Part shown: one piece after another, positions 21,222 through 64,000 of the stretch
Position numbering within the stretch: position 1 is the stretch's first letter
Layout of the letters: each line of letters begins with the position of its first letter
NCBI GenBank assembly: GCA_019057385.1
Contig: JAHQJS010000006.1
Location: 416,001 to 480,000 of the forward strand
Source of the DNA: Candidatus Borrarchaeum weybense
Lineage (GTDB): Archaea > Asgardarchaeota > Sifarchaeia > Borrarchaeales > Borrarchaeaceae
Direction: 5' to 3'
Length of the DNA stretch: 64,000 nucleotides
Made by a program: the position numbers and the translations under genes
Notes under the pieces: generated by a model
Seen by the model: the letters and a program-made list of their open reading frames with translations, nothing else
Told to the model about the DNA's origin: nothing
The model's database searches: none

Positions 21222-24200
21222 TTGACTTTGAGTTTATCTGAAAATTCACTAAAAATTCTCGAGCGCCGCTATTTGGCCAAGAACGAGAAAAGGGAACTAA
21301 TTGAAACACCTGAGGAAATGTTTAGTCGTGTCGCTAATAATATAGCTTCTGCGGAGGCACTCTATGGCGGCGATGTTGAACGAATGGGATTAGATTTTTA
21401 TGAAATAATGACTTCCTTTAAGTTTCTCCCTAACTCTCCGACGCTTATGAACGCTGGTCGAGAACTTCAGCAATTATCTGCATGTTTTGTAATTCCAATT
21501 GACGATTCTATTGACAGTATCTTCGACGCAGTTAAGTATACTGCTCTAATTCACAAGAGTGGTGGCGGAACGGGGTTTGCTTTTTCTCGCTTGCGTCCTA
21601 AAAATGATGTAGTTCGAACGACCGGGGGCATAGCTAGTGGTCCCATCTCCTTTATGAAAGTACTTAATACTAGTACTGAAGTTATCAAGCAAGGAGGATG
21701 CTTAGTTCCTAATACTTTAGTCTTTTCAAATAAAGGTCTCCTTCGTTTGAACGAGTTAGTAGATGAAAAAGTTCGGGGCTGGCAGGAACACGATCTAAAA
21801 GTTGCTACCGATAATGGAGAAAAGATATCTCCCCGAGGATATAATAATGGAGTTGTATCTGTTCTCAGAGTTACTACTGAACAAGAGATTAATCTTACAG
21901 GTACACCTAATCACAAGGTAAAAGTGATGACAGATGAAGGGACTGTTTGGAGACAATTAAGTGAATTAAGACCAGGAGATGCTATTCTTGTTAAATTAGG
22001 ACAGCATAGAGGACAAATTCAAAAACTTAAGCACCCTGAAATTCAGCATCACAACCAGAAAGAAATTGATCTTCCTTCAGTTCTAGATGAATCACTGGCC
22101 TTCTTACTTGGTCTTCTGGCAGGTGATGGTTTTGTTGCGAGTGGATTAAAAGATTATCGTATCGGGTTCAGTATCAGTCATAATTCTTACTTGATTGAAG
22201 AGTTACCAGAATTTTTGGAGAAATTATTTCCAGGTATTCACGTTCAGCTAATGCAGAAAGATGATGATGCTTCAGTCAATTTTATTGTGAGCAGTCGGTC
22301 ACTTAAGGAATTTTTGGTATTAAATAATCTATCAAAGGAAGAAAGCCATAAGGTATCAGTTCCTCTATTAATAAGGAAAAGCCCACCATCTGTGGTCGGG
22401 GCTTATTTAAGAGGTCTCTTCGAAGCTGATGGTACAATAACACATGGATATCCCGTACTAACATCTACTTCTCATCGGTTAATTCAAGAAGCGTCTGCAT
22501 TACTAATAGGATTAGGATGCCCTGTATCCATACGTGAAATTCCTGCAAATGAAGATCGCTTTGGATCAGACAATCTATGGTCCCTAAAACTGCGATCCCA
22601 CGTTGCTTTAGATGTCTGGAAAGACAAGATTGGATGCGATTCACGATCTCGTTTTGTTAGTTGCTACGATTTTTCACCAGATTTAGAAAGAGAGCAAAAT
22701 TATGTACTTCCAAGTGTCAAATGGTGGGTTGAGCCTGTTCTAAAAGCTATTACCCTACCACAGAGAGATAAAAAGGGAAGGGGAATGGGAAAGAAATTCA
22801 GATCAACTGCACCTAAGTTGCGAAATAAACTTCTACGTTATATTCGTGGAGAGCGGCAATTTACCTTTAGTGCTTATTGTAATCTATCAAAAGAATACCC
22901 CGAATTCACTGCGAATGCTCGTGATGTTAACAATTTATGGTTCATTACTGTTACAGATATTCAAAAAGTAGGCAAATCACAAACCATGGATTTAGAGGTC
23001 AATGAAAACCATACTTATTTAGCCCATGGAATGGTCACCCACAACACAAGGCGTGGCGCTAATATGGGCATTCTCCGCGTAGATCATCCCGATATAATTG
23101 AATTTATTACCTCGAAAAGTGACCTAACAGAACTAACCAACTTCAATATTTCAGTCGCAGCAACTGATGAGTTTATGAAAGCAGTAAAAACTGATCGGAA
23201 ATATAATTTGATTAATCCTCGCACAAATAAAATAGTTGAAACTCTAGACGCAAAAGATGTATTCGATTTGATTATTGAAATGGCTTGGAAAAACGGAGAG
23301 CCCGGTTTATTCTTTATTGATCGTGCAAATCAATTTAATCCTACGCCCGCTTTAGGAGATTATGAAAGCACTAATCCTTGTTTGCCAGGAGATACTTTAA
23401 TTGCAACTGCAGATGGAAGGGGAACAATTCCGATAGAAAAACTTGCTAATGAAGACAAAGATGTTCCTGTATTTACAGAAAATAATGACGGCAAAATTGT
23501 AGTTAGATATATGCGAAGACCTAGACTTACTGGAAAGAATGTTCCTGTCTATAAAATTGCTTTAGATTCAGGAGATGTTATTAAAGCAACTAAAAATCAT
23601 GTCTTCTACCTTAGAGATGGAACTAGTAGACGCACAGACGAGTTAAAGCCAGGCGACAGTCTTCATGTTTTAACCAAAGTATTACAATGGCAAAAGGGAA
23701 AATACACAAAAAATAGGTCAAAAAAATATTGGAGGATGTATAATCGAGGAATATCGGATAAATCAGAGCACAATATCATTGCAAGGTTTTTCCATAATAA
23801 TAATAAAGAAATATCTGAAGATTGTGTAGTCCATCATATTGATTTTAATTCAACAAATAACTCGCCTACTAATCTTGAAATTCTTAGAATCAGTGACCAT
23901 GATCAACTTCATAGTCATTCAATAAAAGGTGAAAACAATCCGCTCTATAAATTAAAGCAAAACAAGGAAGTTTGGGAAAAATATAAAGCTGAGAATCCGT
24001 TTTATAATACTAAAGGTGAAAATAACCCTAATTATAGGAAGCATCACTCAGAAGAAACGAAAAGAAAAATAGGAGAAAAATCTAGAGAATTATTTGCCAA
24101 TCCTGAAGTAAGAAAAGCGTTTTCAGAGAGAATGACCAAACTCTGGAATGATGAGAACTATCAAAAAAATGCAGAAAAAGGTTTTCATAAAAGAGCCTTA

Positions 24201-26135
24201 CGTAAATTAGAAGAATGTAGAGAAAAAACAGATCTGCAATGTTATTTGAAAGGAAATAGTGTTATGGTCAAGAAAACCTGTGAAAACTGTGGATCTGAAT
24301 TTTCAATTAGTTTTAGCGAAAGAGAACTTGGCTTTTGTGGCAAAGAATGCTTCATGGACTTTTTAAATTCAGATGACTCAATTTTCGAAAAAAGAGTAGA
24401 AGGCGTAAGAAATGCTTACAAAGAGAGAGCAAGACGAAATAAAGAACAACAAATTGAAAAATACATAGAATTACTGGACAAACTAGACCGTGTACCATTT
24501 AAGAAAGAATGGGAAGATTTCTGCAAAGAATCAATAGTTACTTTTAGATTAGGGACTAAATATGGTTCCAAGACTTACAAAGAATTAAAAGAAGCCGCAG
24601 ATATGTACAATCATAAAATCGTTTCAATTGAATACCTAGGCAAAGAAGATGTATATAATGGGACAGTAGATGATTTTCATACATTTTTTATTGGAGGTTT
24701 CGAGTCTAAGAGCAAGAATAGAAAGAAAGTAAGATTCATTAAAACTAAAAACTGCGGCGAGCAATTGTTACTTCCTATGGAGAGCTGCAATTTAGGTTCC
24801 ATCAATCTTTCAAAGATGGTTAAACAAGAAAACGGACACTGCACAGTTGATTATGAGGAATTGAAGAGAGTGGTTAGACTTTCAGTAAGATTTCTCGATA
24901 ATGTTATTGATATGAACAACTATCCACTTCCAGAAATTGAAAAAATGACTAAAGAAAATAGAAAGATTGGTTTGGGAGTTATGGGGTGGGCAGATTTACT
25001 AATTCAATTGAGAATTCCTTATGATTCACTAGATGCTCTTGAACTTGCAGAAAAAATCATGAGGTTTATTTCAGAAGAAGGCCGCAAAGCATCTGAAGAC
25101 TTAGCTAAGGAACGTGGTCAATTTCCAAGTTTCGACGATAGTATCTACAAGGATTCAACACCACTACGTAATGCAACAGTTACCACCATAGCTCCCACTG
25201 GAACTATTAGCATGATAGCAGATTGTTCAAGTGGAATTGAACCTCTATTTGCTGTAAGTTATTTCAAGAAAGTAATGGATGGTGAAAAACTCGTAACTGT
25301 CAACTCGTACTTCGAAGGCATTGCAAATGAAGAAGGCATTTACAGTCAAGATTTAATGCAGAAAATTGCAGAACAAGGAACTATTCAAAAAATTGATGAA
25401 ATTCCTGAGCATATTCGTAGACTTTTCGTCACAGCACATGATATCACACCTGAATGGCATGTGCGTATGCAAGCTGCGTTTCAGAAATATACTGATAACG
25501 CTGTCAGTAAAACGGTAAATATGCCGCAAGAGGCCACAAAGTCCGATGTAGCAACTGTATTTATGACTGCTTATGAACTGGGTTGTAAAGGAGTAACTGT
25601 GTTTCGTTATGGTAGTAGAGAAGCAGTTGTGAATATAGGCAAGGCTGAGGAGGCTCCTAAAGAGGATGTACTTACACCACGCACTAGACCGTCTGTGACT
25701 GTAGGTGAGACGGAAAGAATAAGAACTGGATGCGGTAATCTTTACGTTACCATAAACGCTGATAGCGAGGGTCTTTTTGAGGTATTTTCAACGCTTGGAC
25801 ATTCTGGGGGATGTCCTAGTGCCCAATCGGAGGCAATCAGTCGTCTAATTTCATTATCTCTTCGTTCAGGTGTAAAAATTGAATCAATTGTCAAGCAATT
25901 GCGAGAAATACGTTGTCCGTCAGCTTCTTGGGACGAAGGTACGTTGATTCTCTCATGTCCTGATGCAATTGGCAAGGCACTTTCTCGATATATCGAAAGA
26001 CACGAAATAGAAGGCTCTTATGAAAAAACTGCTATGAAATCATATTATGGTGTTTGTCCAGATTGCGGAGGACAACTTGTTCACGAAGAAGGTTGTCTAA
26101 TCTGTAAGTCATGTGGAGCATCAAAGTGTGAGTAA
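21222..26135 (+). CDS. nrdJ: Class II (B12-dependent) ribonucleotide reductase with C-terminal TSCPD domain and two inteins
   Basis: FLPNSPTLMNAG, QLSACFV, NP|CGEQ, ESCNLGSINL, TIAPTGTIS, ILSCPDAI and terminal Zn ribbon; ~730 aa after splicing. Confidence 0.95.
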   Translation: MTLSLSENSLKILERRYLAKNEKRELIETPEEMFSRVANNIASAEALYGGDVERMGLDFYEIMTSFKFLPNSPTLMNAGRELQQLSACFVIPIDDSIDSIFDAVKYTALIHKSGGGTGFAFSRLRPKNDVVRTTGGIASGPISFMKVLNTSTEVIKQGGCLVPNTLVFSNKGLLRLNELVDEKVRGWQEHDLKVATDNGEKISPRGYNNGVVSVLRVTTEQEINLTGTPNHKVKVMTDEGTVWRQLSELRPGDAILVKLGQHRGQIQKLKHPEIQHHNQKEIDLPSVLDESLAFLLGLLAGDGFVASGLKDYRIGFSISHNSYLIEELPEFLEKLFPGIHVQLMQKDDDASVNFIVSSRSLKEFLVLNNLSKEESHKVSVPLLIRKSPPSVVGAYLRGLFEADGTITHGYPVLTSTSHRLIQEASALLIGLGCPVSIREIPANEDRFGSDNLWSLKLRSHVALDVWKDKIGCDSRSRFVSCYDFSPDLEREQNYVLPSVKWWVEPVLKAITLPQRDKKGRGMGKKFRSTAPKLRNKLLRYIRGERQFTFSAYCNLSKEYPEFTANARDVNNLWFITVTDIQKVGKSQTMDLEVNENHTYLAHGMVTHNTRRGANMGILRVDHPDIIEFITSKSDLTELTNFNISVAATDEFMKAVKTDRKYNLINPRTNKIVETLDAKDVFDLIIEMAWKNGEPGLFFIDRANQFNPTPALGDYESTNPCLPGDTLIATADGRGTIPIEKLANEDKDVPVFTENNDGKIVVRYMRRPRLTGKNVPVYKIALDSGDVIKATKNHVFYLRDGTSRRTDELKPGDSLHVLTKVLQWQKGKYTKNRSKKYWRMYNRGISDKSEHNIIARFFHNNNKEISEDCVVHHIDFNSTNNSPTNLEILRISDHDQLHSHSIKGENNPLYKLKQNKEVWEKYKAENPFYNTKGENNPNYRKHHSEETKRKIGEKSRELFANPEVRKAFSERMTKLWNDENYQKNAEKGFHKRALRKLEECREKTDLQCYLKGNSVMVKKTCENCGSEFSISFSERELGFCGKECFMDFLNSDDSIFEKRVEGVRNAYKERARRNKEQQIEKYIELLDKLDRVPFKKEWEDFCKESIVTFRLGTKYGSKTYKELKEAADMYNHKIVSIEYLGKEDVYNGTVDDFHTFFIGGFESKSKNRKKVRFIKTKNCGEQLLLPMESCNLGSINLSKMVKQENGHCTVDYEELKRVVRLSVRFLDNVIDMNNYPLPEIEKMTKENRKIGLGVMGWADLLIQLRIPYDSLDALELAEKIMRFISEEGRKASEDLAKERGQFPSFDDSIYKDSTPLRNATVTTIAPTGTISMIADCSSGIEPLFAVSYFKKVMDGEKLVTVNSYFEGIANEEGIYSQDLMQKIAEQGTIQKIDEIPEHIRRLFVTAHDITPEWHVRMQAAFQKYTDNAVSKTVNMPQEATKSDVATVFMTAYELGCKGVTVFRYGSREAVVNIGKAEEAPKEDVLTPRTRPSVTVGETERIRTGCGNLYVTINADSEGLFEVFSTLGHSGGCPSAQSEAISRLISLSLRSGVKIESIVKQLREIRCPSASWDEGTLILSCPDAIGKALSRYIERHEIEGSYEKTAMKSYYGVCPDCGGQLVHEEGCLICKSCGASKCE
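21699..23045 (+). mobile_element. Intein 1 in NrdJ with LAGLIDADG homing endonuclease (449 aa)
   Basis: KQGG|CLVPNT...VTHN|TRRGANM; LLGLLAGDG and YLRGLFEADG motifs. Confidence 0.92.
23379..24752 (+). mobile_element. Intein 2 in NrdJ with HNH endonuclease, NUMOD3 repeats and Zn finger (458 aa)
   Basis: STNP|CLPGDT...IKTKN|CGEQ; VHHIDFNSTNNSPTNL; KGENNP twice; HSEETKRKI; CENC...FCGKEC. Confidence 0.92.
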
Positions 26136-43065: not shown

Positions 43066-43674
43066 ATGAAGTTACCTCGCAAAACTTTTGAATTTGTAGA
43101 CAGTTCGCTTATTACTTACAGTCCTACAAGACTACGTATGGAATTTTATATCTCCTTCGCGTCAGTCTGCATCCTTCTAGCGTCTTTTGTGTTTTGGAAC
43201 AGCCCCGGCTGGATGTTTTATGCAGATATTGCCTATCTTCAACTTGTGTTAGGTTTGGTTTTGACTGTCGTTGCTATGACTTTCTTATGGATCGTCCTAA
43301 CCTTAGAAAAGTTTGTTGTAAAAAAAATAAGAATTAAGAAATATAAGATAGAAGTAATAGCATCCTTTGTAACTTTGCCCTTTGAGTTCTTCGTGGTGTA
43401 CGTCATACTAGATTTTATAGAGTATTTCAGACCAATATCATCTGTACTCCAAGGCATTACTGCAGCCTTCATAATTGTTGCACTGCTTCTCCTCTCTCTA
43501 TGGGCTGCGTTCTCTCTTGAAAGATGGCATTCTGTAAGAAAAAGCCTGTCTGGTGAAGATGAACAAATATCAGTTGAAGATTGGGTCGAAGAATACGAGA
43601 AAATAGATGAATCTGAGGAGGAGGACGAATACGTAAAAGAAAGAGAATTTGAAGAAATTGACTATTCGTCATAG
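43066..43674 (+). CDS. Four-TM membrane protein with acidic C-terminal tail
   Basis: Hydrophobic helices, E/D-rich tail, AGGTGA SD. Confidence 0.7.
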   Translation: MKLPRKTFEFVDSSLITYSPTRLRMEFYISFASVCILLASFVFWNSPGWMFYADIAYLQLVLGLVLTVVAMTFLWIVLTLEKFVVKKIRIKKYKIEVIASFVTLPFEFFVVYVILDFIEYFRPISSVLQGITAAFIIVALLLLSLWAAFSLERWHSVRKSLSGEDEQISVEDWVEEYEKIDESEEEDEYVKEREFEEIDYSS

Positions 43675-44035: not shown

Positions 44036-44623
44036 GTGAGCATAAAAATGCCATTTGCAGGAGCTGTTGGAGTACCCGCACCCGCTGTCGCCATTGGTAT
44101 GAGCGGATTAATCTTCCCATTGTGGGCCATCGGTGCCGCCATCTTTCTCGGCTATGAATTTACCCCAGCTGAGGGTAAAGCTCTCGGTGCTACCTGTCTA
44201 GTTGGTTGCTATTCATTAAGTTTCCAGGGGCTTTGGCACATCGTTGCTAACCCATTAGGTGGTGTCTTTAGCATCATCTTTGCCACGATTCCATTCATGT
44301 ATGCCGTTACCTGGCTCGTTGGCTTCTTTGTCAACGTCTTCGGATTTGACGGTAAAGTTCTTGGACAAGTATGTCTACAAGAAATGATACCGCAAATTAT
44401 AGCCTCGGTAGCATGTTGGATGGCTGGTGGAACTCAACCAATGCTACAAATTGACTTGTGGTTCTATATCCTTGTGCTATTTGGATTCTTCCTCTTTACA
44501 CACGGATACGGCGGAAAAGGCGGTGCGTACTACTGTGGGCTGTTCTGCTTCCTTTCCTGGATTGCTACCGTCCACCTACAATTCTGGTGGAGTGGAATCT
44601 TCGATCCAGGTCCCTTCTGGTAG
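44036..44623 (+). CDS. Six-TM channel, SatP/GPR1-FUN34-YaaH or AmiS/UreI-like
   Basis: ~195 aa, six TM helices, N-terminal PAP motif; higher GC with C-ending codons; T-rich terminator follows. Confidence 0.55.
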   Translation: MSIKMPFAGAVGVPAPAVAIGMSGLIFPLWAIGAAIFLGYEFTPAEGKALGATCLVGCYSLSFQGLWHIVANPLGGVFSIIFATIPFMYAVTWLVGFFVNVFGFDGKVLGQVCLQEMIPQIIASVACWMAGGTQPMLQIDLWFYILVLFGFFLFTHGYGGKGGAYYCGLFCFLSWIATVHLQFWWSGIFDPGPFW

Positions 44624-44789: not shown

Positions 44790-45320
44790 CTGACAGAAAT
44801 TTCACGTAACGAAATTGAAAATGCCTTTACTGGTAGTTTCACAAAAAAGGAACTAACTGAAATAGCAAAAGAACACGATCTTAAGGGATTATCAAAACTT
44901 AAGAAACAAGAACTTATCGATTTTTTATTTAAGAATGTAGATTTAGCAACCTTATATACCTACGCAGAAGAATGTATCAAAAAACAGCGGAAGCTGAAAG
45001 CTGAAATAAAAGACTTATCATTTGAAGAACTTCTTGCCAAACTTACTGATGAAAAGAGACTAAAAAATGGCTTATCAATCCCTGACTCTGAGGTAAAACT
45101 CATAGAAGAGGGGGAAGGCACTTGGCATTTCAGAATAAAAAACTATAATTGTCAAATTGACGTGAATCGTCGGATAATTCGTCATGATTGTACTGATTGG
45201 GGTTTTCGCGGGAAAAAAGAACATATCCTATGCAAACACATGATCAAAGCGATCTCGAAGATTGATAATGCAGAAACTATTGTGAAACGTCTAATTTTAG
45301 ATAGATGGGTCTATCTATGA
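44790..45320 (+). CDS. Rho-N/HEH-like domain plus SWIM zinc finger protein; CTG start (absent from ORF track)
   Basis: 176-aa ORF after GGAGAGG: TKKELTEIAKEHDLKGLSKLKKQELIDFL ... HDCTDWGFRGKKEHILCKHM. Confidence 0.8.
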   Translation: MTEISRNEIENAFTGSFTKKELTEIAKEHDLKGLSKLKKQELIDFLFKNVDLATLYTYAEECIKKQRKLKAEIKDLSFEELLAKLTDEKRLKNGLSIPDSEVKLIEEGEGTWHFRIKNYNCQIDVNRRIIRHDCTDWGFRGKKEHILCKHMIKAISKIDNAETIVKRLILDRWVYL

Positions 45321-45503: not shown

Positions 45504-47975
45504 ATGATTATAATTATTAAACGCTTAATTCTCGGAAGTGATTATTTGAGTGAATTATTATCAGCAATAATATTTGCATTGATTTTTGGTGCATTATCTT
45601 GGATCCCTGGATTTGGAGATTTAATGTTTAGAGTTACGGACTTAGCAGGAGTTACGGAATTAGCAGGAATCGAAATAGCGCCAGGTCACCCATTACTTAT
45701 TTGGGTAGGATTTGGGTTTGCGATAGGTATAGGATGTCGTTTCCTTTTAGATGCCTATACTACTCTTATGAAATTAGGGTCTGCAGGAGTACGTGGTGCT
45801 ACTGAAGGATTCTTTAGCGGAGGAGAGACGCAAAAAAGTGCTGTAACATCAATTGTGCTCTTTGGGTGCGCAATTTCCATCGTTTCACTTACAAGTTATA
45901 TTACAGTCTACATAACTCCAGTTTTTGAATATCTTCAATTAGTGGAAAATACGCTTCTTATAATCGGAGACTATTTAGCAATCACTCTTGGTGTGGTTCT
46001 CATATTTATTGGTGTTATATCTTACCGGACGGGAAGGTTCGTGAGAACTGTTGCGAGAAAACAGGTTAGTGCACCGCAATTTCTGTTTGGAGCATTCTTC
46101 TTTGGTCTGATGCAAATTGTAGATCTTAGAGTCGGAATTTTCGCCCTGGTTATTGCATTTCTTGCAGCAGGTTTTTCTCCATCATTAGCATTGAGAATTC
46201 CGCTCTTTTTTGCAATTCCTAGTTCCTTGATGACAGCTTTTGGTTTGATTAGTCGAACTGGAGGTGTAGTTCTTACAGATTCTATAGTTATAGTATTAAT
46301 TCTTGTGAGTGCACTTTCAACATTTGTAGTGCTATCGTTTGTGTTTCGATTTACTGAAAAATTGAGTTTAGGAAGTTTTAGTGGATTAATTGGAATTCTT
46401 ATTTTGGTCGTAAGCAGCAGCATTCTCTTTGGATTCAGTTTAGACAAACTTGGATATTATGCTCTTTTTGGAATAGGAGCTGTTGGTGCAAGTATTTTCT
46501 CCGTTGAATTGTTCACAGAGGTTAGCAGAAGAAGCAAAGTTAAAGGTATTACTAAAGAGATTTTAGATGACACAAAAAGAGCGACAGAGCAAGCGAGAAT
46601 AATCAGAGCAGTTGAAGTAAATAATCTCACGACAAGTTCTGGTGAACTTAAAGAAATAGCCGAACCGATGAATTTTGTTATAATGCAAGGGAGGATTGAA
46701 CGAACAAATTCAATGGTTAAATCAGTTTCGGAGAGTGAATTACGACGAATTCAAAGTGAAATAAGTGATCCAGATCCCAAGAAACGTAAAGAAATCCAAC
46801 AGAAATTGAATGACATTATGGCATCATTGCCAACATTGACACTTCAAGAGTTTTCAAAAGTTAAAGAATTGGGAACTGAACTTGAGTTAGCGCTCTCAGA
46901 TGAATCTGAATGGGTGCGTTATTTTGCAGTGGATTCTTTGGCCCATCTTCTCTCAGCGTATGGAATGGTTTTGGAGAACACCCTTCCCGAATGGGTAACG
47001 GATGTCGTTGAAAAACTAAAACTTCTTCTAAATGATGTCGATCTTGATGTCCGTTATATGACTGCAAAAACAATTGGCGTTATTGGAAGCATCGACCCAG
47101 AGAAAGTGCGTTCAGTTATTCCACAATTAAGTCAACTTACTGATGATGTAAACAAGGAAGTACGCTATGTAACAATAGATTCTCTTAAGAACATCGTTTT
47201 GTTTGAAGTTATTTCTTCAGGTTTGCCACGCATAATTGACAAGTTTAATGATTCAGATAAAGATGTACGTCTGATAGCAATCCGGGCTACTTGTGAACTC
47301 TATAAGAATTTCCCAGACAAAATGGACTCAGTGATTGAACCCTTAAAGGAATTACAAAAAGATTCTGATAAAGACGTCAGGAAGGAAGCATTTGCTGCTC
47401 TCTCTGTTATTTCCGCTGAAGAAGCGAGGGCTATCCCAATAAGTGAAATAGCAGAGGATGAAATAAAGGCGGTAGCAGAGGTACCAGCAGAAAAGACAGT
47501 AAAACTACGTCCTACAATTACTACTCTGACCTCAAATCTTAAATGGAAGCAAAAAGACTTAGGAAAAATGCTAAAAGTAATCGAAAAAGGCCCTAACATG
47601 ACTTACACAGTTTCAATTGCATTTAAAAACAGTAGTGGCATAACCCTGAAAAAACTGAAGATCATTGATGAACTACCACGCTCCTTTGAAATTACTAATT
47701 TCCTGCCAAAAAAAGAGAAGCCAAAGATTAAAACTCAAGAAGATGCAAAAGAAGCAACTTGGACGCTCAAGAACTTAGATACTGATCAGATATTTACAGT
47801 GGCATATATAGCTAATGGGTCAGAATCATATTTGTCAAAACCTCCAAGAGTTGAAATTGATGGCTTTGTAGAAACAGGGACAACTACAGATGCTATGGAT
47901 AAAGCGAAGAGGAAGAAATTCAGACTGCCAGTATTACACGCAAGACTGAGAAAACAGCAAATCGCTGAAGCATAG
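45504..47975 (+). CDS. Degenerate UppP/BacA-like multi-TM domain, HEAT repeats and C-terminal Ig-like domain
   Basis: 8-9 TM helices with UppP-like remnants (ALSWIPG, FGLMQ, ALRIPLFFAIP); D...VRY/L HEAT units; YTVSIAFKNSSGITLKKLKIIDELPRSF beta-sandwich. Start may be TTG at 45546. Confidence 0.7.
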   Translation: MIIIIKRLILGSDYLSELLSAIIFALIFGALSWIPGFGDLMFRVTDLAGVTELAGIEIAPGHPLLIWVGFGFAIGIGCRFLLDAYTTLMKLGSAGVRGATEGFFSGGETQKSAVTSIVLFGCAISIVSLTSYITVYITPVFEYLQLVENTLLIIGDYLAITLGVVLIFIGVISYRTGRFVRTVARKQVSAPQFLFGAFFFGLMQIVDLRVGIFALVIAFLAAGFSPSLALRIPLFFAIPSSLMTAFGLISRTGGVVLTDSIVIVLILVSALSTFVVLSFVFRFTEKLSLGSFSGLIGILILVVSSSILFGFSLDKLGYYALFGIGAVGASIFSVELFTEVSRRSKVKGITKEILDDTKRATEQARIIRAVEVNNLTTSSGELKEIAEPMNFVIMQGRIERTNSMVKSVSESELRRIQSEISDPDPKKRKEIQQKLNDIMASLPTLTLQEFSKVKELGTELELALSDESEWVRYFAVDSLAHLLSAYGMVLENTLPEWVTDVVEKLKLLLNDVDLDVRYMTAKTIGVIGSIDPEKVRSVIPQLSQLTDDVNKEVRYVTIDSLKNIVLFEVISSGLPRIIDKFNDSDKDVRLIAIRATCELYKNFPDKMDSVIEPLKELQKDSDKDVRKEAFAALSVISAEEARAIPISEIAEDEIKAVAEVPAEKTVKLRPTITTLTSNLKWKQKDLGKMLKVIEKGPNMTYTVSIAFKNSSGITLKKLKIIDELPRSFEITNFLPKKEKPKIKTQEDAKEATWTLKNLDTDQIFTVAYIANGSESYLSKPPRVEIDGFVETGTTTDAMDKAKRKKFRLPVLHARLRKQQIAEA

Positions 47976-47991
47976 AATTTCCTTACAAAAG

Positions 47992-48864
47992 GTGAAGAAA
48001 ATGAGATCGATTGTAAATGATGAAGCTATGATTGAGTTATTATCAAATCTATATCCTCCACTCACAGTAAAAGAGATCAAGGATGTTTTACCAGACTTTT
48101 CATCGAATAAAGACAAAGATATTAAGGATATTTTAAATAAGCTTAGTTCTACAAGCGAAATGGCTCTTCCTTCTCTTTTTAAGAGCATTGTGCTTGAAAA
48201 AAGAGGAACATTCAAGAGTGAAATGAAGAAAAAAACAGAAAGTTATTTTCAAGATGAAGTTAGTTTAGACGCATACAAGACTGATGTTACAATTGGAAAA
48301 GGCAAGACTGTTCTAAAAATTGATATTTTAGGGAGGAAAGAGAATAACGATATTTGCTCTTTTGTCATGGAAAACTTAGATATCGAATCTTTTGAAAGTT
48401 TTAAGACAATGCTGGTCACAATTCTTTCTTATGCAAAGATTTCTCCAGTTGAAATTTATTTAGTAACTCCAAAGGAAACAGATAACAAAATTGTGGAGCA
48501 TGTGAAAAAAAACAAAGCATTAAAATATGTGAAAACTTCTGGAACTGAAATTGATGCCGAGTTCAAACCAATTCTTTACGAATCAGAGATTTCTCGCACG
48601 GCAACCTTAACAATTGAAAAAGAAGATATCTTCGGAGATACAATTCAGATTGGCAGTTTTTCAGGCAGTAGTTTTAAGGATAAAGATGAGCTAATAAAGT
48701 TACTTATAGAAAAATATAGCAAATATGGTGAAGAAATATTTCGTTGCAAATCGTTAGATCATTTCAATAAGAAAACCAGTAAATTCAGCTTTGATACGAC
48801 AACTACATTAGCCTCGGACGTTACAGAAATCACTCAAACCACTCGTTTTAAAGAAAATAAATAA
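47992..48864 (+). CDS. Hypothetical protein, possibly inactive restriction-endonuclease-like fold
   Basis: 290-aa ORF 16 nt after the upstream stop; DVTIG....KIDILG...EIYLVT pattern. Confidence 0.55.
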   Translation: MKKMRSIVNDEAMIELLSNLYPPLTVKEIKDVLPDFSSNKDKDIKDILNKLSSTSEMALPSLFKSIVLEKRGTFKSEMKKKTESYFQDEVSLDAYKTDVTIGKGKTVLKIDILGRKENNDICSFVMENLDIESFESFKTMLVTILSYAKISPVEIYLVTPKETDNKIVEHVKKNKALKYVKTSGTEIDAEFKPILYESEISRTATLTIEKEDIFGDTIQIGSFSGSSFKDKDELIKLLIEKYSKYGEEIFRCKSLDHFNKKTSKFSFDTTTTLASDVTEITQTTRFKENK

Positions 48865-48915
48865 AGCAGAAAAGTTTCTGAGTTGTTGTTAAACTCAAAG
48901 TATTTAAAAGAAAAA

Positions 48916-49039
48916 TGGCGGCTCCCGAGCGGATTTTCGTATTCATTTTTGAATTTTACAAATATATCGAACCGCAAGCCCTCATCGAGCTACCGGGTTT
49001 GAAGCCCGGTGCGCGAGACCACTCGTGCTTTCGGGAGCC
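48916..49039 (-). tRNA. selC: tRNA-Sec (UCA) with 32-nt BHB intron in the T-loop (48934-48965, position 59/60)
   Basis: 9-bp acceptor GGCTCCCGA/TCGGGAGCC, G73, encoded CCA; 7-position D stem with TGGT loop; CCGGG-CT-TCA-AA-CCCGG; long variable arm; 4-bp T stem GCGG/CCGC; 92 nt after splicing. Confidence 0.93.
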
Positions 49040-49150
49040 GACTGAACTATCTACTTAAGTATAATTCTCTATATTTGACTCTCATTATAAATGGGTCTTT
49101 TCATCTCTTAAAAAATAAGCTGTTTGTATTCTTTTTTAAGATGGTTTTCT

Positions 49151-50197
49151 TTAGTATGTGCGCTCTACAAAATACGTTGCAATATTTTCTAACATCTTTT
49201 TTGCTGATGAATCAGGAAAATTTAATAATTGTTTTCTAGCCTCTTCTTTTAACTCCTTCGCTTTTTCTTCAGCTTTTTGAGGTGCTTTAGTTGATTTTAT
49301 AAGATCAATTACTTCATTTACTTCTTCATCTGTTACCTTTTCTTTTCGCAAAACATTCAAGACATATTCTCTTTGTTTACTTTCAAGTTCCTCCAAAGCA
49401 TAAAGTACAGCAATATTACCCATTTTATGTTCTTTGATGTCATGTCCGACTGGTTTCCCTAATTTTTCTGCGTCGGCAAATAAATCTAGCACATCATCTT
49501 TGGCTTGAAATGCCAATCCAGCGTTCCATCCATAAGAACTTGCTGCTTCAATCATTTCTTTAGAACCATTGGCACATATCACGCCAACTTCACACGCTGC
49601 TTTTATCAGAACTGCTGTTTTATCTCCAACCATTTCAAAATAATCATCGAGGGTTATCGTTTTATATCTCTTTTCTAAAATATACTCTTCATCGCGACCT
49701 GCTTGTTCAAAGAGTACGTCCTTGCGTTCTCCTTCAACCAACTGTCGTACGACGTCAGAAAAGATCTTGTTAATAGTTTCTGATGCGGGCGATTTTAAAG
49801 CAGATAAAAAAATCGCTTCTCTATAATGCATACCTGCAAGTAATGCAATTGGAAGACCAAATTTCACGAAGGTTGTGGGTCGATTCCTCCTGTAAGGCGA
49901 TCTATCGATGATATCGTCCATTAACAAGGAGTAATTATGAATTAATTCAATTCCAGCAGCTGAACTCAATGCATCCTCAGTATTGCCATTAGCTAATTCA
50001 CAAAATAATAAAGTAAGCACAGGACGAAGTCTTTTTCCCCCAGAAGCAACTTGATATAATATCACTTCTTGAAAATCTTGAGTCGTATCCTCTAATAATA
50101 ATTCCTCAATCTTGTTTTCAATAGGTCCGATAGTTTGCTTCAAATGTTGCTCAATCTCTTTTTTGAGTATCATTACTTCATCTGACATTGATTTCAA
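49151..50197 (-). CDS. idsA: Polyprenyl (GGPP) diphosphate synthase
   Basis: GGKRLRP, HNYSLLMDDIID...RR, KT, FQAKDDVLD, GKPVGHDI. Confidence 0.92.
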   Translation of the reverse strand: MKSMSDEVMILKKEIEQHLKQTIGPIENKIEELLLEDTTQDFQEVILYQVASGGKRLRPVLTLLFCELANGNTEDALSSAAGIELIHNYSLLMDDIIDRSPYRRNRPTTFVKFGLPIALLAGMHYREAIFLSALKSPASETINKIFSDVVRQLVEGERKDVLFEQAGRDEEYILEKRYKTITLDDYFEMVGDKTAVLIKAACEVGVICANGSKEMIEAASSYGWNAGLAFQAKDDVLDLFADAEKLGKPVGHDIKEHKMGNIAVLYALEELESKQREYVLNVLRKEKVTDEEVNEVIDLIKSTKAPQKAEEKAKELKEEARKQLLNFPDSSAKKMLENIATYFVERTY

Positions 50198-60304: not shown

Positions 60305-63300
60305 TCACTCGATTTCAAGTAGTTGTTTAACATCCATCCCTAATTCCATGGCACGTAATGTGATTTCTCTTTCGTCTAAATGAAGAATCAAGTTTTGCAA
60401 AGGAAAGTTTGCGTTAAGTTGTTTGAGAACAAAGATACATCTTTTTAGGACTTTCACTGCACGATCAAAATCATCAAAAGCTAATTGATCTGAGAGATTT
60501 TCAAACACTCTAGTCATGCCGATAAAGTCCTCAAAACTGCGGAAGTGATCAGCGGCCTTATAAGCGTATTCTACCATTAAATCTTGACTGAATTCTTGAA
60601 CTAGAAATGAAAATTTCTCGTATAATTTTGCACTTATTCGTGCTCTGTTTTCTACTTGTAATGTCTGTATAACTTCCTCAAAAACTGCCCTAGCCGCCTC
60701 AATAAATTCCGCACTTGTGAATTCTTCAGAAAGGCTTAAAAGAAGGTTCTCTAAAGTTTTAAGATCTTTAACTTCAGAGACTAATGTTTGAACAAACTTT
60801 TGTGCAGCTCTAACACCTTCTGTTTTCAATAGTTTTTGGATAGCTTGCTTTGCATATTCTTCAGCGGCATCAGGATTCTTAATTGTGTAATATATCTTTA
60901 TAATTTCAAGCGTAAATTGAGCACTATCTTCATATCTTCCTAAAGTATCAAGTTTGTCTATATATTTCTGCGCAATATCAATAGCCTTAGTTGGATCGTG
61001 AGCTTTAGTGATCTCAATTGCAGTTAACATCATTGTATTTGCCAGTTCAATATTTTGAGTTTCTGCGGCTAGCAGTTTTTTAACAAATCGAATGCAAAGT
61101 GCTGCGGCGTTTGTCCATTCTTCCGTCTTCGCTTTCAATTCAGCCAGGGTTTTGATTATTTCAGCTTGATCAGTTATTTTGAATTGATCATTTGTTTCAA
61201 AGGACTCAACAAGTTCCTGTAAAAAATTAATTGCATCATCATGTTTTTCTGATTTGAAGAAGTGGTGAGCCGCTGTCTTAGCATGCTTAACAGCACGATT
61301 GCACTGATTTAAAGAAATCAATTGTTCACAGAATTCTCTACTGATTATAGCTGCAATCGTCTCTCTATGTTCAGCGAGATTCATCTCAACAATAAACTCA
61401 ATTAATTTTTCAGCCCATCCAATATCTCCAGTTTCAACTATCTGATCTTTATATTGTGTAAGCAGCACAGTCCCTTTCCCTATGCCTTTAGATGCTTTAA
61501 AAAACTCCCTAAGTTGTGTGATGTATTCATATGCAGTTTCATAGTTTTTCTGCTGAATCAAAAATTCAATAAATGGCTTTAAAATATCTATTCCTGCGTT
61601 ATAATCGTGATCAACATTAATTGCCCGGTTTAAAAGTTGTTCAGTCAATTTCTTTGCTAAACTTAAGTCTTTGTCTTGTAAAATCTCTCTGTGTTCCGCT
61701 AATATAGTATATGCACTATCTATGTCTGCCATTTCTTCATAAAGTGTCGCTACCTGAGTGATGTATTCTAAGCAACTCGCGTAGACTTCGTTTTTAATTA
61801 GAATATCAATTGTATTCTCTAAGATTGGAATAAGCAATCTGAGTAAACGCTTTTCTTGATAATAATCAGTGATGTATGAAATAACTTTGAAGCCTTCTTC
61901 TGATTTCGAATTGACAAATATCTCATACGTGTCTAAATAAACTTTAATCGCTGTATAGGTATCTCCAGATGCTTCATAGGACTCATAAGCTTTTTCTAGA
62001 TATTCTAAAGCAAGGCTATAGTTCTCGGTTTTAAGAATCGCTTTTGCAAATGAAAAATTAAATTCAGCAACTCGTTTTGGTGCATTTGGTCCTCCAAGTT
62101 GTGAGATATATTCACTAACCTGATTAATAAACTCTGTAGCTAGATGCAAATCATCATCTTTGCATAACATCGGAAGCGCTTTTTCGTTATAAATTTTAAG
62201 TGCTTCATCGATATCTTCAGTATATTCTATTAATGTGAATAAACGATCAATGACTTCCTTAGCTTCACCAATTTCCTTCATTTTAGCTGCTGAACTTAGT
62301 GTTATTTCAGCTGTTTTATCAAAATCATCTTCATAAGATTGTATGGCGAAATCTGTAAATGTAATCAGATATTCACGTGCTTCACTCATCTGGTTGATCT
62401 TGATCAGGTCATCAACGGTTTCAAAGCCAAACTTAACGATTTTTTCAAATTCCTTTTGTTCAATGAAAATCTTTATGACAGCATTTACAAACTCTAAAGC
62501 TATAAGATATTTCTTTTCTTCTTCTTTCATTAGTCTTTTTGAAAGAGTAGATGCAAGTTCAAGTACTAGATCATCTTTACCTTCCTCTTGGAAATACTTA
62601 AAGCCCCTTTGCGAGAGTATAACTGCTTCTTCTTCCAATCTTTCATTTTCTGAAAGTAAATTGATAGCTTTTTCAGCAGTCTCCAGTAGATCAAATCGAT
62701 CTTCTAACGTTTCATAAAAATTAAGTGCTGATGTAAAGAATTCAACAATCTCTTCTTTAACTAAATTGTTCAATTCGTGATCATCTTCCGATACCTGGTC
62801 AAAATTGTTTAACAGGAATTCCCCGTATTCAACCGAATACTCCGCAAGTGTTCTCATTAGATCGGCTTTTTGTAATACTTCAACCGTTCTCTTCATATAT
62901 TGAATAATTACACGTAAATCAACTCGATATTCTGAATAACGTTTTATCAATGCATCTACTAGCATACTACAAAGTTTTGAAGCATCTAATAGCTGCCCTC
63001 GCTCAATTAATTTATTGATACTTTCATCCGCAAACTCAATGAAGAGATCAATATCTAATTCTAATAACTGCTCTGTAATATTCATTCTTAGTTTATTGGC
63101 ATCAGAATATTTTTCTCGCATATCAAGCAATGAAATTGCTTTTGAACCGAATTTTATTACGCCTAGTGAGTTCTTCAACTCACCGAATTTCCTTAATAAC
63201 TCAATTGAAAGTTCTGTCGCTTTTTCAATATCTTTATTTTCTTGAACAACCTGTAAGAAATGTTCAACTGCTTGATTGATAACAAGTTCCTCTTGAGGCC

Positions 63301-64000
63301 TTTGTCGGAGTTCCTGTATTACCTGTAGTACTTTTTCTGCCGCTAACAAAGCAGCTGATAAAGAAATTTGCGGAATTCCTTGATTCAATACTCTTGCTAT
63401 GTCTTCGTCAGTGAGTTCATTAATTTGTAACGTTTTTGACAAACTCTCTCCTGTATTAGTCGAAGAAAATGAGAGAAGCCATTTGTCCGCTCCACGTCGA
63501 TAAATATGTCCAGTTACGTCTTCCACATGTGCGATCCGGATGTCTTTTAGAAAGGCCATTCTTTCCTCGTCTTTCACACTGTCTTTCATCAACTCAATAT
63601 AACGATCAACATCTTTAGCAGTTCTTAATTCTTTTACGATTTCTTCCAGTGAAGGCATTTCTTCGATAGATATCTCATCACCACTTGATACTGAAACCTC
63701 TTCTTTCGGAAAATATTCTTCGATGTTGTTTAAGACGTCAACAAGTTTTTCTGCAGCATCATATGCTCCTGAAAAGGAAAAAAATTCTAACTGCTCATTT
63801 AACTTATCTGCAACATCATCTACAACTGTTGATGAAATATTTATTGCGAATGGGCTCTCTGATCGTCCATGAATTGCCATTATTTGCCATTCATTTGGAC
63901 TTCTCGCATGAATTTGAAGTGTGGTTTTTCCGCCCTCTACTACTATCTCTTTTATTAACAGTTCGGGCTTTTCTTCTGAGATTTCGCTTATGGGTGTTTC
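60305..64000 (-). CDS. Very large alpha-solenoid (TPR/SNAP-like) protein; 5' end lies beyond the window
   Basis: Frame stays open from 63880 to 64000; ~950 aa of acidic helical repeats preceded by two copies of a small alpha/beta domain. Confidence 0.8.
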   Translation of the reverse strand, partial: ETPISEISEEKPELLIKEIVVEGGKTTLQIHARSPNEWQIMAIHGRSESPFAINISSTVVDDVADKLNEQLEFFSFSGAYDAAEKLVDVLNNIEEYFPKEEVSVSSGDEISIEEMPSLEEIVKELRTAKDVDRYIELMKDSVKDEERMAFLKDIRIAHVEDVTGHIYRRGADKWLLSFSSTNTGESLSKTLQINELTDEDIARVLNQGIPQISLSAALLAAEKVLQVIQELRQRPQEELVINQAVEHFLQVVQENKDIEKATELSIELLRKFGELKNSLGVIKFGSKAISLLDMREKYSDANKLRMNITEQLLELDIDLFIEFADESINKLIERGQLLDASKLCSMLVDALIKRYSEYRVDLRVIIQYMKRTVEVLQKADLMRTLAEYSVEYGEFLLNNFDQVSEDDHELNNLVKEEIVEFFTSALNFYETLEDRFDLLETAEKAINLLSENERLEEEAVILSQRGFKYFQEEGKDDLVLELASTLSKRLMKEEEKKYLIALEFVNAVIKIFIEQKEFEKIVKFGFETVDDLIKINQMSEAREYLITFTDFAIQSYEDDFDKTAEITLSSAAKMKEIGEAKEVIDRLFTLIEYTEDIDEALKIYNEKALPMLCKDDDLHLATEFINQVSEYISQLGGPNAPKRVAEFNFSFAKAILKTENYSLALEYLEKAYESYEASGDTYTAIKVYLDTYEIFVNSKSEEGFKVISYITDYYQEKRLLRLLIPILENTIDILIKNEVYASCLEYITQVATLYEEMADIDSAYTILAEHREILQDKDLSLAKKLTEQLLNRAINVDHDYNAGIDILKPFIEFLIQQKNYETAYEYITQLREFFKASKGIGKGTVLLTQYKDQIVETGDIGWAEKLIEFIVEMNLAEHRETIAAIISREFCEQLISLNQCNRAVKHAKTAAHHFFKSEKHDDAINFLQELVESFETNDQFKITDQAEIIKTLAELKAKTEEWTNAAALCIRFVKKLLAAETQNIELANTMMLTAIEITKAHDPTKAIDIAQKYIDKLDTLGRYEDSAQFTLEIIKIYYTIKNPDAAEEYAKQAIQKLLKTEGVRAAQKFVQTLVSEVKDLKTLENLLLSLSEEFTSAEFIEAARAVFEEVIQTLQVENRARISAKLYEKFSFLVQEFSQDLMVEYAYKAADHFRSFEDFIGMTRVFENLSDQLAFDDFDRAVKVLKRCIFVLKQLNANFPLQNLILHLDEREITLRAMELGMDVKQLLEIE

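Follow-up and report, generated by a model that had tools for sequence, protein, structure and literature searches.

The 64-kb window analysed here (64,000 nucleotides; contig JAHQJS010000006.1, positions 416,001 to 480,000 of the forward strand, assembly GCA_019057385.1 of Candidatus Borrarchaeum weybense) contains two adjacent genes that appear to form a two-gene module of one lineage. Gene 1 is a + strand open reading frame (ORF; 45504-47975) of 823 amino acids and encodes, in order, a polytopic membrane domain, five to six HEAT repeats, a short linker, a beta-sandwich and a basic tail. Gene 2 (P0009) is the next ORF downstream and encodes a 287-amino-acid orphan protein (48001..48864, + strand). 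The reading we lean toward is that the gene 1 protein is a genus-specific membrane tether or scaffold built on a pseudo-UppP domain, whose cytoplasmic DUF11/tail module would hold the gene 2 product. The gene 1 protein is a new domain architecture.

Residue numbers count from ATG 45504 throughout. The real start of gene 1 is probably TTG 45546 (residue 15), because all five relatives of the protein begin at the counterpart of this residue, with MSEL or MSDL, and ggaagtga sits just 5' of the TTG. The relatives are 64-88% identical and come from metagenome-assembled genomes (MAGs) labelled Sifarchaeia or Promethearchaeota; conservation is assessed among close relatives only. Identity is 70-87% in the membrane domain, and to the four more distant relatives it is 53-58% in the sandwich and 51-57% in the linker. 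The NCBI MAG records of two relatives (P0003 and P0004) are named 'sister chromatid cohesion protein PDS5', since the name was transferred from generic HEAT repeats. The present analysis corrects this public annotation.

The membrane domain (residues 15-338) has about 11 hydrophobic helices. The sequence-only reading of this DNA had described it as UppP-like with the catalytic motifs lost, and this is borne out by profile alignment with hhalign, by HMMER and by a map of conserved columns. Aligned by hhalign with a profile built from 30 Asgard UppP sequences, the gene 1 family profile gives, over 250 columns, a probability of 86.5% and an E of 4.6e-6. Query residues 3-288 run collinearly with UppP 5-263 of 270. 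Since membrane proteins invite false positives, a genome-wide control was run in which the UppP hidden Markov model (HMM) was compared with all 251 ORFs of the genome that have at least six predicted transmembrane (TM) helices. The real UppP came first (100%, E 4.9e-75) and the gene 1 ORF second (89-90%, E 2e-6, 251 columns), and the next-best ORF reached only 13% (E 0.0021, 75 columns). The reversed gene 1 query gave an E of 0.32. With the HMMER filters off (--max), the UppP HMM ranks five gene 1 family members directly behind the true UppP. In the reciprocal search the family HMM returns UppPs in its first eight non-self places (best E 3.1e-8), with pairings such as 'LVFRFTEKLSLGSF' with 'LLFRFARKVQFGYF'. 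Descent of the membrane domain from UppP is thus rated as very likely on sequence profiles. Because the model of the membrane domain has a predicted local distance difference test (pLDDT) score of 30-40, the UppP fold is likewise read from profiles only. The hydropathy, the helix breaks at 32-38 and 207-209 and the loop charges are compatible with the BacA inverted-repeat fold. No internal repeat was detected by hhalign of the N half against the C half of the domain (0.5% probability).

The pseudo-UppP core (residues 15-311, 45546..46436, + strand) is predicted to hold two re-entrant hairpins and six TM helices. Columns with a conservation of 80% or more among Asgard UppPs were mapped onto the gene 1 family. 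The structural columns G29, W33, P35, W67, G71, G155, G201, Q204, G211, P239 and G297 are kept. The BacA1 motif (E-x-L-P-I/V-S-S-x-G-H/Q; EWLPISSxGQ), which carries the catalytic Glu and Ser, is destroyed and reads S-W-I-P-G-F-G in re-entrant loop 1 (residues 32-38, 45597..45617, + strand). Its Trp and Pro are kept, Glu20 is replaced by S32 and Ser25/Ser26 by F37/G38, and every family member has these replacements. D/N/G39 stands in place of Gln29 (the E. coli His30), and His54 is replaced by G69 and Pro100 by T/S130. The BacA2 motif (P-G-x-S-R-S-G, with the catalytic Arg) is also destroyed; its remnant QIVDLRVGIF lies in re-entrant loop 2 (residues 204-213, 46113..46142, + strand) and ends in V-G-I-F. 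Here the Gln and Gly are kept, Pro165 is replaced by V210 and Ser168 by F213, Arg-Ser-Gly 169-171 is deleted, and D207 is a new invariant residue. In E. coli BacA, Glu21, Ser27, His30 and Arg174 line the catalytic pocket (PMC5852022), and the residues lost in gene 1 are their motif counterparts. The residue pattern is a pseudoenzyme signature, which marks the domain as a predicted catalytically dead copy of UppP.

A genuine UppP with intact motifs is encoded elsewhere in the same genome (155 bits), and a normal UppP is retained in all five genomes of the genus. To our knowledge UppP/BacA is known only as an enzyme. Neither a literature search nor the databases consulted yielded a comparable UppP that is dead or fused to other domains. 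The gene 1 protein therefore suggests that the BacA inverted-repeat fold is reusable as a non-catalytic membrane module. Some other Asgard genomes have a normal UppP that is seemingly fused to DedA/VTT in a protein of about 490 amino acids (L025:1489-2967, + strand), which scores 170 bits on BacA and 76 bits on VTT_dom (one open frame scanned). The real UppP and a DedA gene adjoin in the window's genome (G000:C4:660389-662191). This pairing fits a paired carrier-lipid phosphatase and flippase. A DedA/VTT identity was considered for the gene 1 domain itself, on the loops 'IPGxGD' and 'RIP', and was rejected; PF09335 at E<=10 matches five other places in the genome and not the gene 1 ORF.

BacA consists of a re-entrant helix pair and three TM helices, repeated in inverted orientation, and both of its termini are periplasmic (PMC5852022). 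In gene 1 the UppP alignment places the re-entrant pairs at residues 18-47 and 191-224 and the six TM helices at 62-84, 113-137, 149-173, 232-250, 257-281 and 290-311. An extra TM helix follows the core (residues 318-338, 46455..46517, + strand; hydropathy and charge) and is succeeded by RRSKVK; this helix has no UppP counterpart. The proposed inside loops contain 3, 5, 1 and 2 Lys and Arg, with at least 5 more in the tail (at least 16), and the outside loops 1, 0, 1 and 1 (3). Taken together, the extra helix, the BacA topology and the loop charges (positive-inside rule) place the HEAT arm and the rest of the soluble part most likely in the cytoplasm, as the sequence-only reading had presupposed.

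The extra helix is followed by a juxtamembrane region (residues 339-446, 46518..46841, + strand), which AlphaFold2 (AF2) models, at low to medium confidence, as helices and a short beta-hairpin. Its identity is 97% to the closest relative (P0003) and 68-71% to the other four, which are more distant. The HEAT arm follows as five helix pairs (residues 447-640, 46842..47423, + strand). Its Pfam score on HEAT (PF02985) is 62.6 bits (cut-off 23.5, E 1.4e-17) and on HEAT_2 (PF13646) 55.1 bits (cut-off 27.7); PDS5 and Cnd1 also score above their cut-offs. AF2 gives ten helices at pLDDT 80-90 over residues 447-636, plus one pair ahead of them, and the HEAT units that had been proposed thus come to five or six repeats. 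An Ala/Glu/Pro-rich flexible linker (residues 641-668, 47424..47507, + strand) then leads to a beta-sandwich, again as had been proposed. The linker has a pLDDT of 25-49 and the lowest conservation in the protein. The chain ends with a tail of GTTTD, a basic stretch and an amphipathic helix (residues 791-823 and the stop, 47874..47975, + strand), which has invariant columns and is part of the predicted interface with the gene 2 protein.

The sandwich (residues 669-790, 47508..47873, + strand) was modelled alone as residues 662-823 with a pLDDT of 78 and a predicted TM-score (pTM) of 0.76. Its structural matches (VIA) all have a root-mean-square deviation (rmsd) of about 2.5-3 A over 100-116 residues. 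They include CBM2 (3ndy_E and 6qfs_A, Z 10.0), the AP2 mu2 mu-homology domain (MHD; Z 9.4-9.9), chitin-binding and integrin domains (Z 8.7-9.9), the SGIP1 MHD (Z 9.1-9.5) and the COPI delta MHD (Z 9.3-9.4). Fold matches from Foldseek and the Atlas include CBM2/3 and DUF11 clusters. The sandwich alone scores 14.8 bits on Pfam DUF11 (PF01345; E 0.037, cut-off 24.6). The profile of the sandwich family (A3) matches the C-terminal domains of 520-750-amino-acid proteins with an E down to 1.8e-11. These DUF11-type matches occur in 72 of 400 Asgard genomes and 31 of 85 genera, and the matched domains score up to 61 bits on Pfam DUF11. The Asgard relatives of the sandwich that were examined have no signal peptide. 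The sandwich is best read as a divergent, probably cytoplasmic, DUF11-type domain.

DUF11-type sandwiches also occur in other Asgard settings. Multi-sandwich proteins of about 590-630 amino acids without a signal peptide are widespread (L012:16-1779, + strand; L015, L017, L018), and one of them scores 61 bits on DUF11 and, in a separate region, 39.3 bits on Adap_comp_sub (cut-off 31.6). Other proteins start with a TPR/SNAP/MIT-like helical domain that is followed by the sandwiches (L014:1123-2763, - strand; L016:1402-2988, - strand). A 1337-amino-acid protein of the window's own genome (L050:2654-6667, - strand, G000:C4) has a DUF11 score of 36.9 bits, an NACHT/NPHP3-like NTPase region and a sub-threshold Adap_comp_sub-like stretch.

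Gene 2 starts at ATG 48001 (the called start), 25 nt past the gene 1 stop. The sequence-only reading had pointed to this tight linkage. Gene 2 has 19 relatives, all in the same clade as the gene 1 family, and gene 2 lies downstream of gene 1 in every relative with sufficient contig. The kept order is two small multi-TM genes, a 176-amino-acid Rho_N/SWIM-like gene, gene 1, gene 2 and a convergent polyprenyl synthase; the full order is conserved in the contigs of two relatives, L002 and L003. Co-folding of the two products had been proposed as a check and gave a strong result. Gene 1 residues 440-823 (six-row alignment) and the gene 2 protein (twelve-row alignment) reach a score of 0.78 (runs 0.78, 0.79 and 0.65) against 0.00 for the best control, a score that expresses the model's own confidence from shallow alignments of close kin. 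Of 80 solved complexes 58 attain the mark that it passes, as do 2 of 110 mismatched pairs; these counts hold only roughly here, as own alignments were used. The runs have at least 89% of contacts in common, and the pLDDT of the partner is at least 65.

The predicted interface combines the last 20 residues of the gene 2 protein (C-terminal strand 267-286, with SDVTEITQTTRF nearly invariant), the gene 1 strand RPTITTL (669-681), the first of the sandwich, and the tail 787-816, and its mode is beta-strand addition. Interface columns are enriched for invariant residues (odds ratios 2.2-3.0, p about 0.01-0.02). The sandwich and tail are therefore predicted to grip the C-terminal strand of the gene 2 protein, and the two products make a concrete candidate for a two-protein complex in an uncultured Asgard lineage. 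A PDB sequence search with the gene 2 profile returned albumin noise alone.

A search of 400 Asgard genomes located the membrane domain in a single genus, where three of five genomes have it, the source genome among them; the other two are 69% and 77% complete. Outside this genus, a protein of TM helices and HEAT_2 in one genome from another family matches weakly over 66 residues and does not match UppP. The G010 protein of this type (L007:436-1830, - strand) aligns with 62 columns of the family at 85% probability and has no UppP match, and it was not used as support. The G010 family is polytopic and ends in HEAT_2, and a TM-loop-TM stretch in it is 36% identical to gene 1 residues 144-205. 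Metagenomes of 12 studies, from sediment, marsh and mangrove, contain the DNA.

These results may be combined into one mechanism. The membrane part of the gene 1 protein very likely derives from the undecaprenyl/polyprenyl-pyrophosphate phosphatase UppP/BacA, with its polar catalytic residues all lost, and the added TM helix would return the chain to the cytoplasm. There it would carry the HEAT arm, the short flexible linker, the DUF11-type sandwich and the basic tail. The sandwich and tail would capture the C-terminal strand of the gene 2 protein through beta-strand addition, and the gene 2 product, possibly with other clients of the HEAT arm, would be held at the membrane. The analysis shows the domain architecture, the relation to UppP, the motif losses and the narrow distribution, and from these and the models the cytoplasmic orientation, the gene 2 binding and the tether role are inferred. 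The sequence-only reading had suggested a lipid-sensing integral-membrane scaffold. The scaffold or tether is kept as the best reading, but the lipid sensing is speculative and the residues that hold pyrophosphate are gone. It is a long shot that the dead UppP domain reads the polyprenyl-(pyro)phosphate pool or another lipid and so switches between hold and release of the gene 2 protein, a possible winged-helix DNA binder. If so, this would be an archaeal membrane-sequestration switch made from a pseudoenzyme, with a logic like that of SCAP-SREBP or PtsG-Mlc. As a corollary, cytoplasmic Asgard DUF11-type sandwiches and eukaryotic MHDs would share client capture by beta-strand addition, and perhaps ancestry.

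Several results weigh against a pseudo-UppP tether for the gene 2 product. Pfam and NCBIfam give no BacA match to the gene 1 protein at E<=1, and the protein fails the gathering threshold of Pfam BacA PF02673 (33.4 bits). The BacA HMM, searched over the whole genome at E<=10, matches the real UppP and two other places and not the gene 1 ORF. The family profile against the genome's single UppP sequence gives a probability of 0.6% in hhalign, and AF2, run on the full protein with six sequences, gives a model whose membrane part is unusable. Pfam finds nothing below E 0.04 in 12 gene 2 family members, and gene 2 has only sub-threshold language-model leads to winged helix-turn-helix/MarR/GntR/Mrr-like clusters. 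The co-fold score has the limit given with it above, synteny is expected from kinship alone among genus-level relatives, and there is no RNA run among the sequencing runs listed as containing the DNA. The membrane domain is also the best conserved section of the gene 1 protein, which suggests a role beyond anchoring. The failures of Pfam and of AF2 would fit a UppP likeness that is a false positive of membrane-protein composition, with the N-terminal domain as an unrelated orphan anchor. In the same direction, the hhalign probability of 86-90% is short of 95%, and HMMER with the family profile against 1.84 billion representatives returned only its own cluster and one fragment. A PDB sequence search with the membrane-domain profile gave 0 matches, and an ESM Atlas feature search with the domain gave no usable match. 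An initial conclusion of no UppP relation, drawn from the single-sequence hhalign and the Pfam negatives, was overturned by the 30-sequence profile. In the 251-ORF control gene 1 stands three orders of magnitude clear of the next-best ORF and has a longer alignment, the reversed query fails, and the reciprocal HMMER ranking concurs as a second algorithm. With an alignment that is collinear from end to end and has both motif remnants correctly placed, a false positive is improbable. The main rival to the tether is a UppP-fold domain that is active in a new function and may serve a polyprenyl-linked or other ligand, for example as flippase, transporter or receptor, with the HEAT-DUF11 part and the gene 2 protein as regulators or output. 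It is favoured by the conservation of the membrane domain and by new invariant polar residues (S32, D207, R79, D83 and E101), which lie in and around the loops of the former active site. Other proteins known to have the BacA fold are transporters and channels, and BacA has itself been suggested to act as a flippase (PMC5852022). However, a ligand or activity cannot be inferred, the pyrophosphate-binding residues of BacA are lost, and the conservation was measured among close relatives only. A new function is therefore considered unlikely, although it keeps a real share of the probability.

Two further alternatives concern the soluble part. DUF11 is found mostly in surface proteins of bacteria and archaea, and the HEAT and DUF11 parts could face outward as in such a protein if residues 191-224 formed one long TM helix, which would place the C-terminus outside. 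The UppP alignment renders this segment a re-entrant pair, and the positive-inside rule prefers a cytoplasmic C-terminus. Neither the Asgard sandwich relatives nor the predicted partner has a signal peptide, and the former include cytoplasmic domains of TPR/SNAP/MIT-like or NACHT-like type. An outward orientation is very improbable. The other alternative is that of the sequence-only reading, in which the protein is a membrane-embedded proto-coat or adaptor that is related or equivalent to the AP/COPI large subunits, senses polyprenyl phosphate and works with a longin protein and a GTPase. The solenoid-linker-sandwich layout is real, and a peptide strand is the predicted ligand of the sandwich. 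The sandwich aligns with MHDs at Z 9-9.9. The GGA2 GAE ear, at Z 7.4, stands at rank 48 of a list headed by CBM2 and MHD sandwiches, inside the range of the background. Adap_comp_sub also scores above its cut-off in proteins that contain Asgard relatives of the sandwich. Adaptin_N (PF01602) also matches at 29.2 bits, but this is below its 37-bit cut-off, and generic HEAT, PDS5 and Cnd1 score higher. Foldseek matches the HEAT arm to designed armadillo, alphaRep, importin-alpha and PP2A-A structures; the arm is a generic alpha-solenoid. Pfam gives no appendage match for the sandwich at E<=1 and no Adap_comp_sub (PF00928) match in the gene 1 protein. The alpha- and beta-adaptin appendages are not among the 50 structural matches listed, an absence that is not evidence. 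CBM2 and chitin-binding modules reach an equal Z with the sandwich, whose sequence link is to DUF11. The membrane domain is limited to one genus among the 400 genomes. Adaptins are soluble subunits of a heterotetramer, whereas the gene 1 protein is membrane-integral. A longin protein or GTPase elsewhere in the window does not amount to a functional link. The HEAT and sandwich results largely agree with what the sequence-only reading had named as evidence against itself, a match to generic families without adaptin affinity, and a proto-coat is highly improbable. The gene 1 protein is adaptor-like in layout only and is not read as a fused adaptin, and a relation to adaptins is not supported. A solenoid plus beta-sandwich in Asgard genomes should not be read as adaptin ancestry, and the family has little bearing on eukaryogenesis because it is confined to one genus.

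The genes around the module were also inspected. Directly upstream of gene 1 is the 176-amino-acid gene (window 44790-45320, + strand), which has a SWIM-like C-x-C...C-x-H finger and a Rho_N/SAP-like motif (32.8 bits, above the cut-off). Although the window copy has no ATG, GTG or TTG before residue 125, the gene is intact, with 76% identity to the L002 gene, and likely uses an unusual start codon. The two small multi-TM orphan proteins (43066-43674 and 44036-44623, both + strand) match no Pfam family and are kept upstream in the relatives, with 91% identity between the second and its L002 counterpart. The 1637-amino-acid ORF at 21222-26135 (+ strand) is a ribonucleotide reductase with inteins (Intein_splicing, LAGLIDADG_3) and is not a solenoid. 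The long TPR-containing ORF of the window is at 60305-64000 (- strand). ARAGORN found no tRNA in window 48800-49200.

The gene 1 protein can be compared with four known systems. It has the same order as the AP/COPI large subunits, with an alpha-solenoid, a flexible linker and a beta-sandwich that is predicted to bind a partner peptide. It differs from them in that the HEAT arm has five to six generic repeats with Adaptin_N below cut-off, the linker is about 28 residues instead of about 100, and the sandwich is DUF11/CBM2-like and not an appendage with a platform subdomain. It is also membrane-integral. The likeness to the MHD (AP mu, COPI delta, SGIP1 and Syp1) is structural (Z 9-9.9, rmsd 2.6-3.0 A, about 110 residues), and both the MHD and, by prediction, the sandwich bind a partner peptide by beta-strand addition. 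However, this match ties with CBM2 and chitin-binding modules, and it covers one of the two MHD subdomains at 10% identity. The gene 1 sandwich shares the 'D-x-(I/L)-P' strand motif with DUF11, and its profile finds C-terminal DUF11 domains. It differs in that the domain is single-copy, stands on a HEAT arm and membrane domain, and has a unique conserved GTTTD/basic tail. The resemblance to UppP/BacA extends over the entire UppP length of the profile. The predicted helix pattern agrees, with two rounds of a re-entrant pair and three TM helices. Structural Gly, Trp and Pro residues persist, among them the counterpart of the Pro202 kink, and the loop charges indicate a matching orientation. The gene 1 protein differs from UppP/BacA in that it scores below the Pfam threshold with a genuine UppP also in the genome, has lost the equivalents of Glu21, Ser26/Ser27, His30 and Ser173-Arg174 (SRSG), and adds one TM helix and a 485-residue extension that is predicted to be cytoplasmic.

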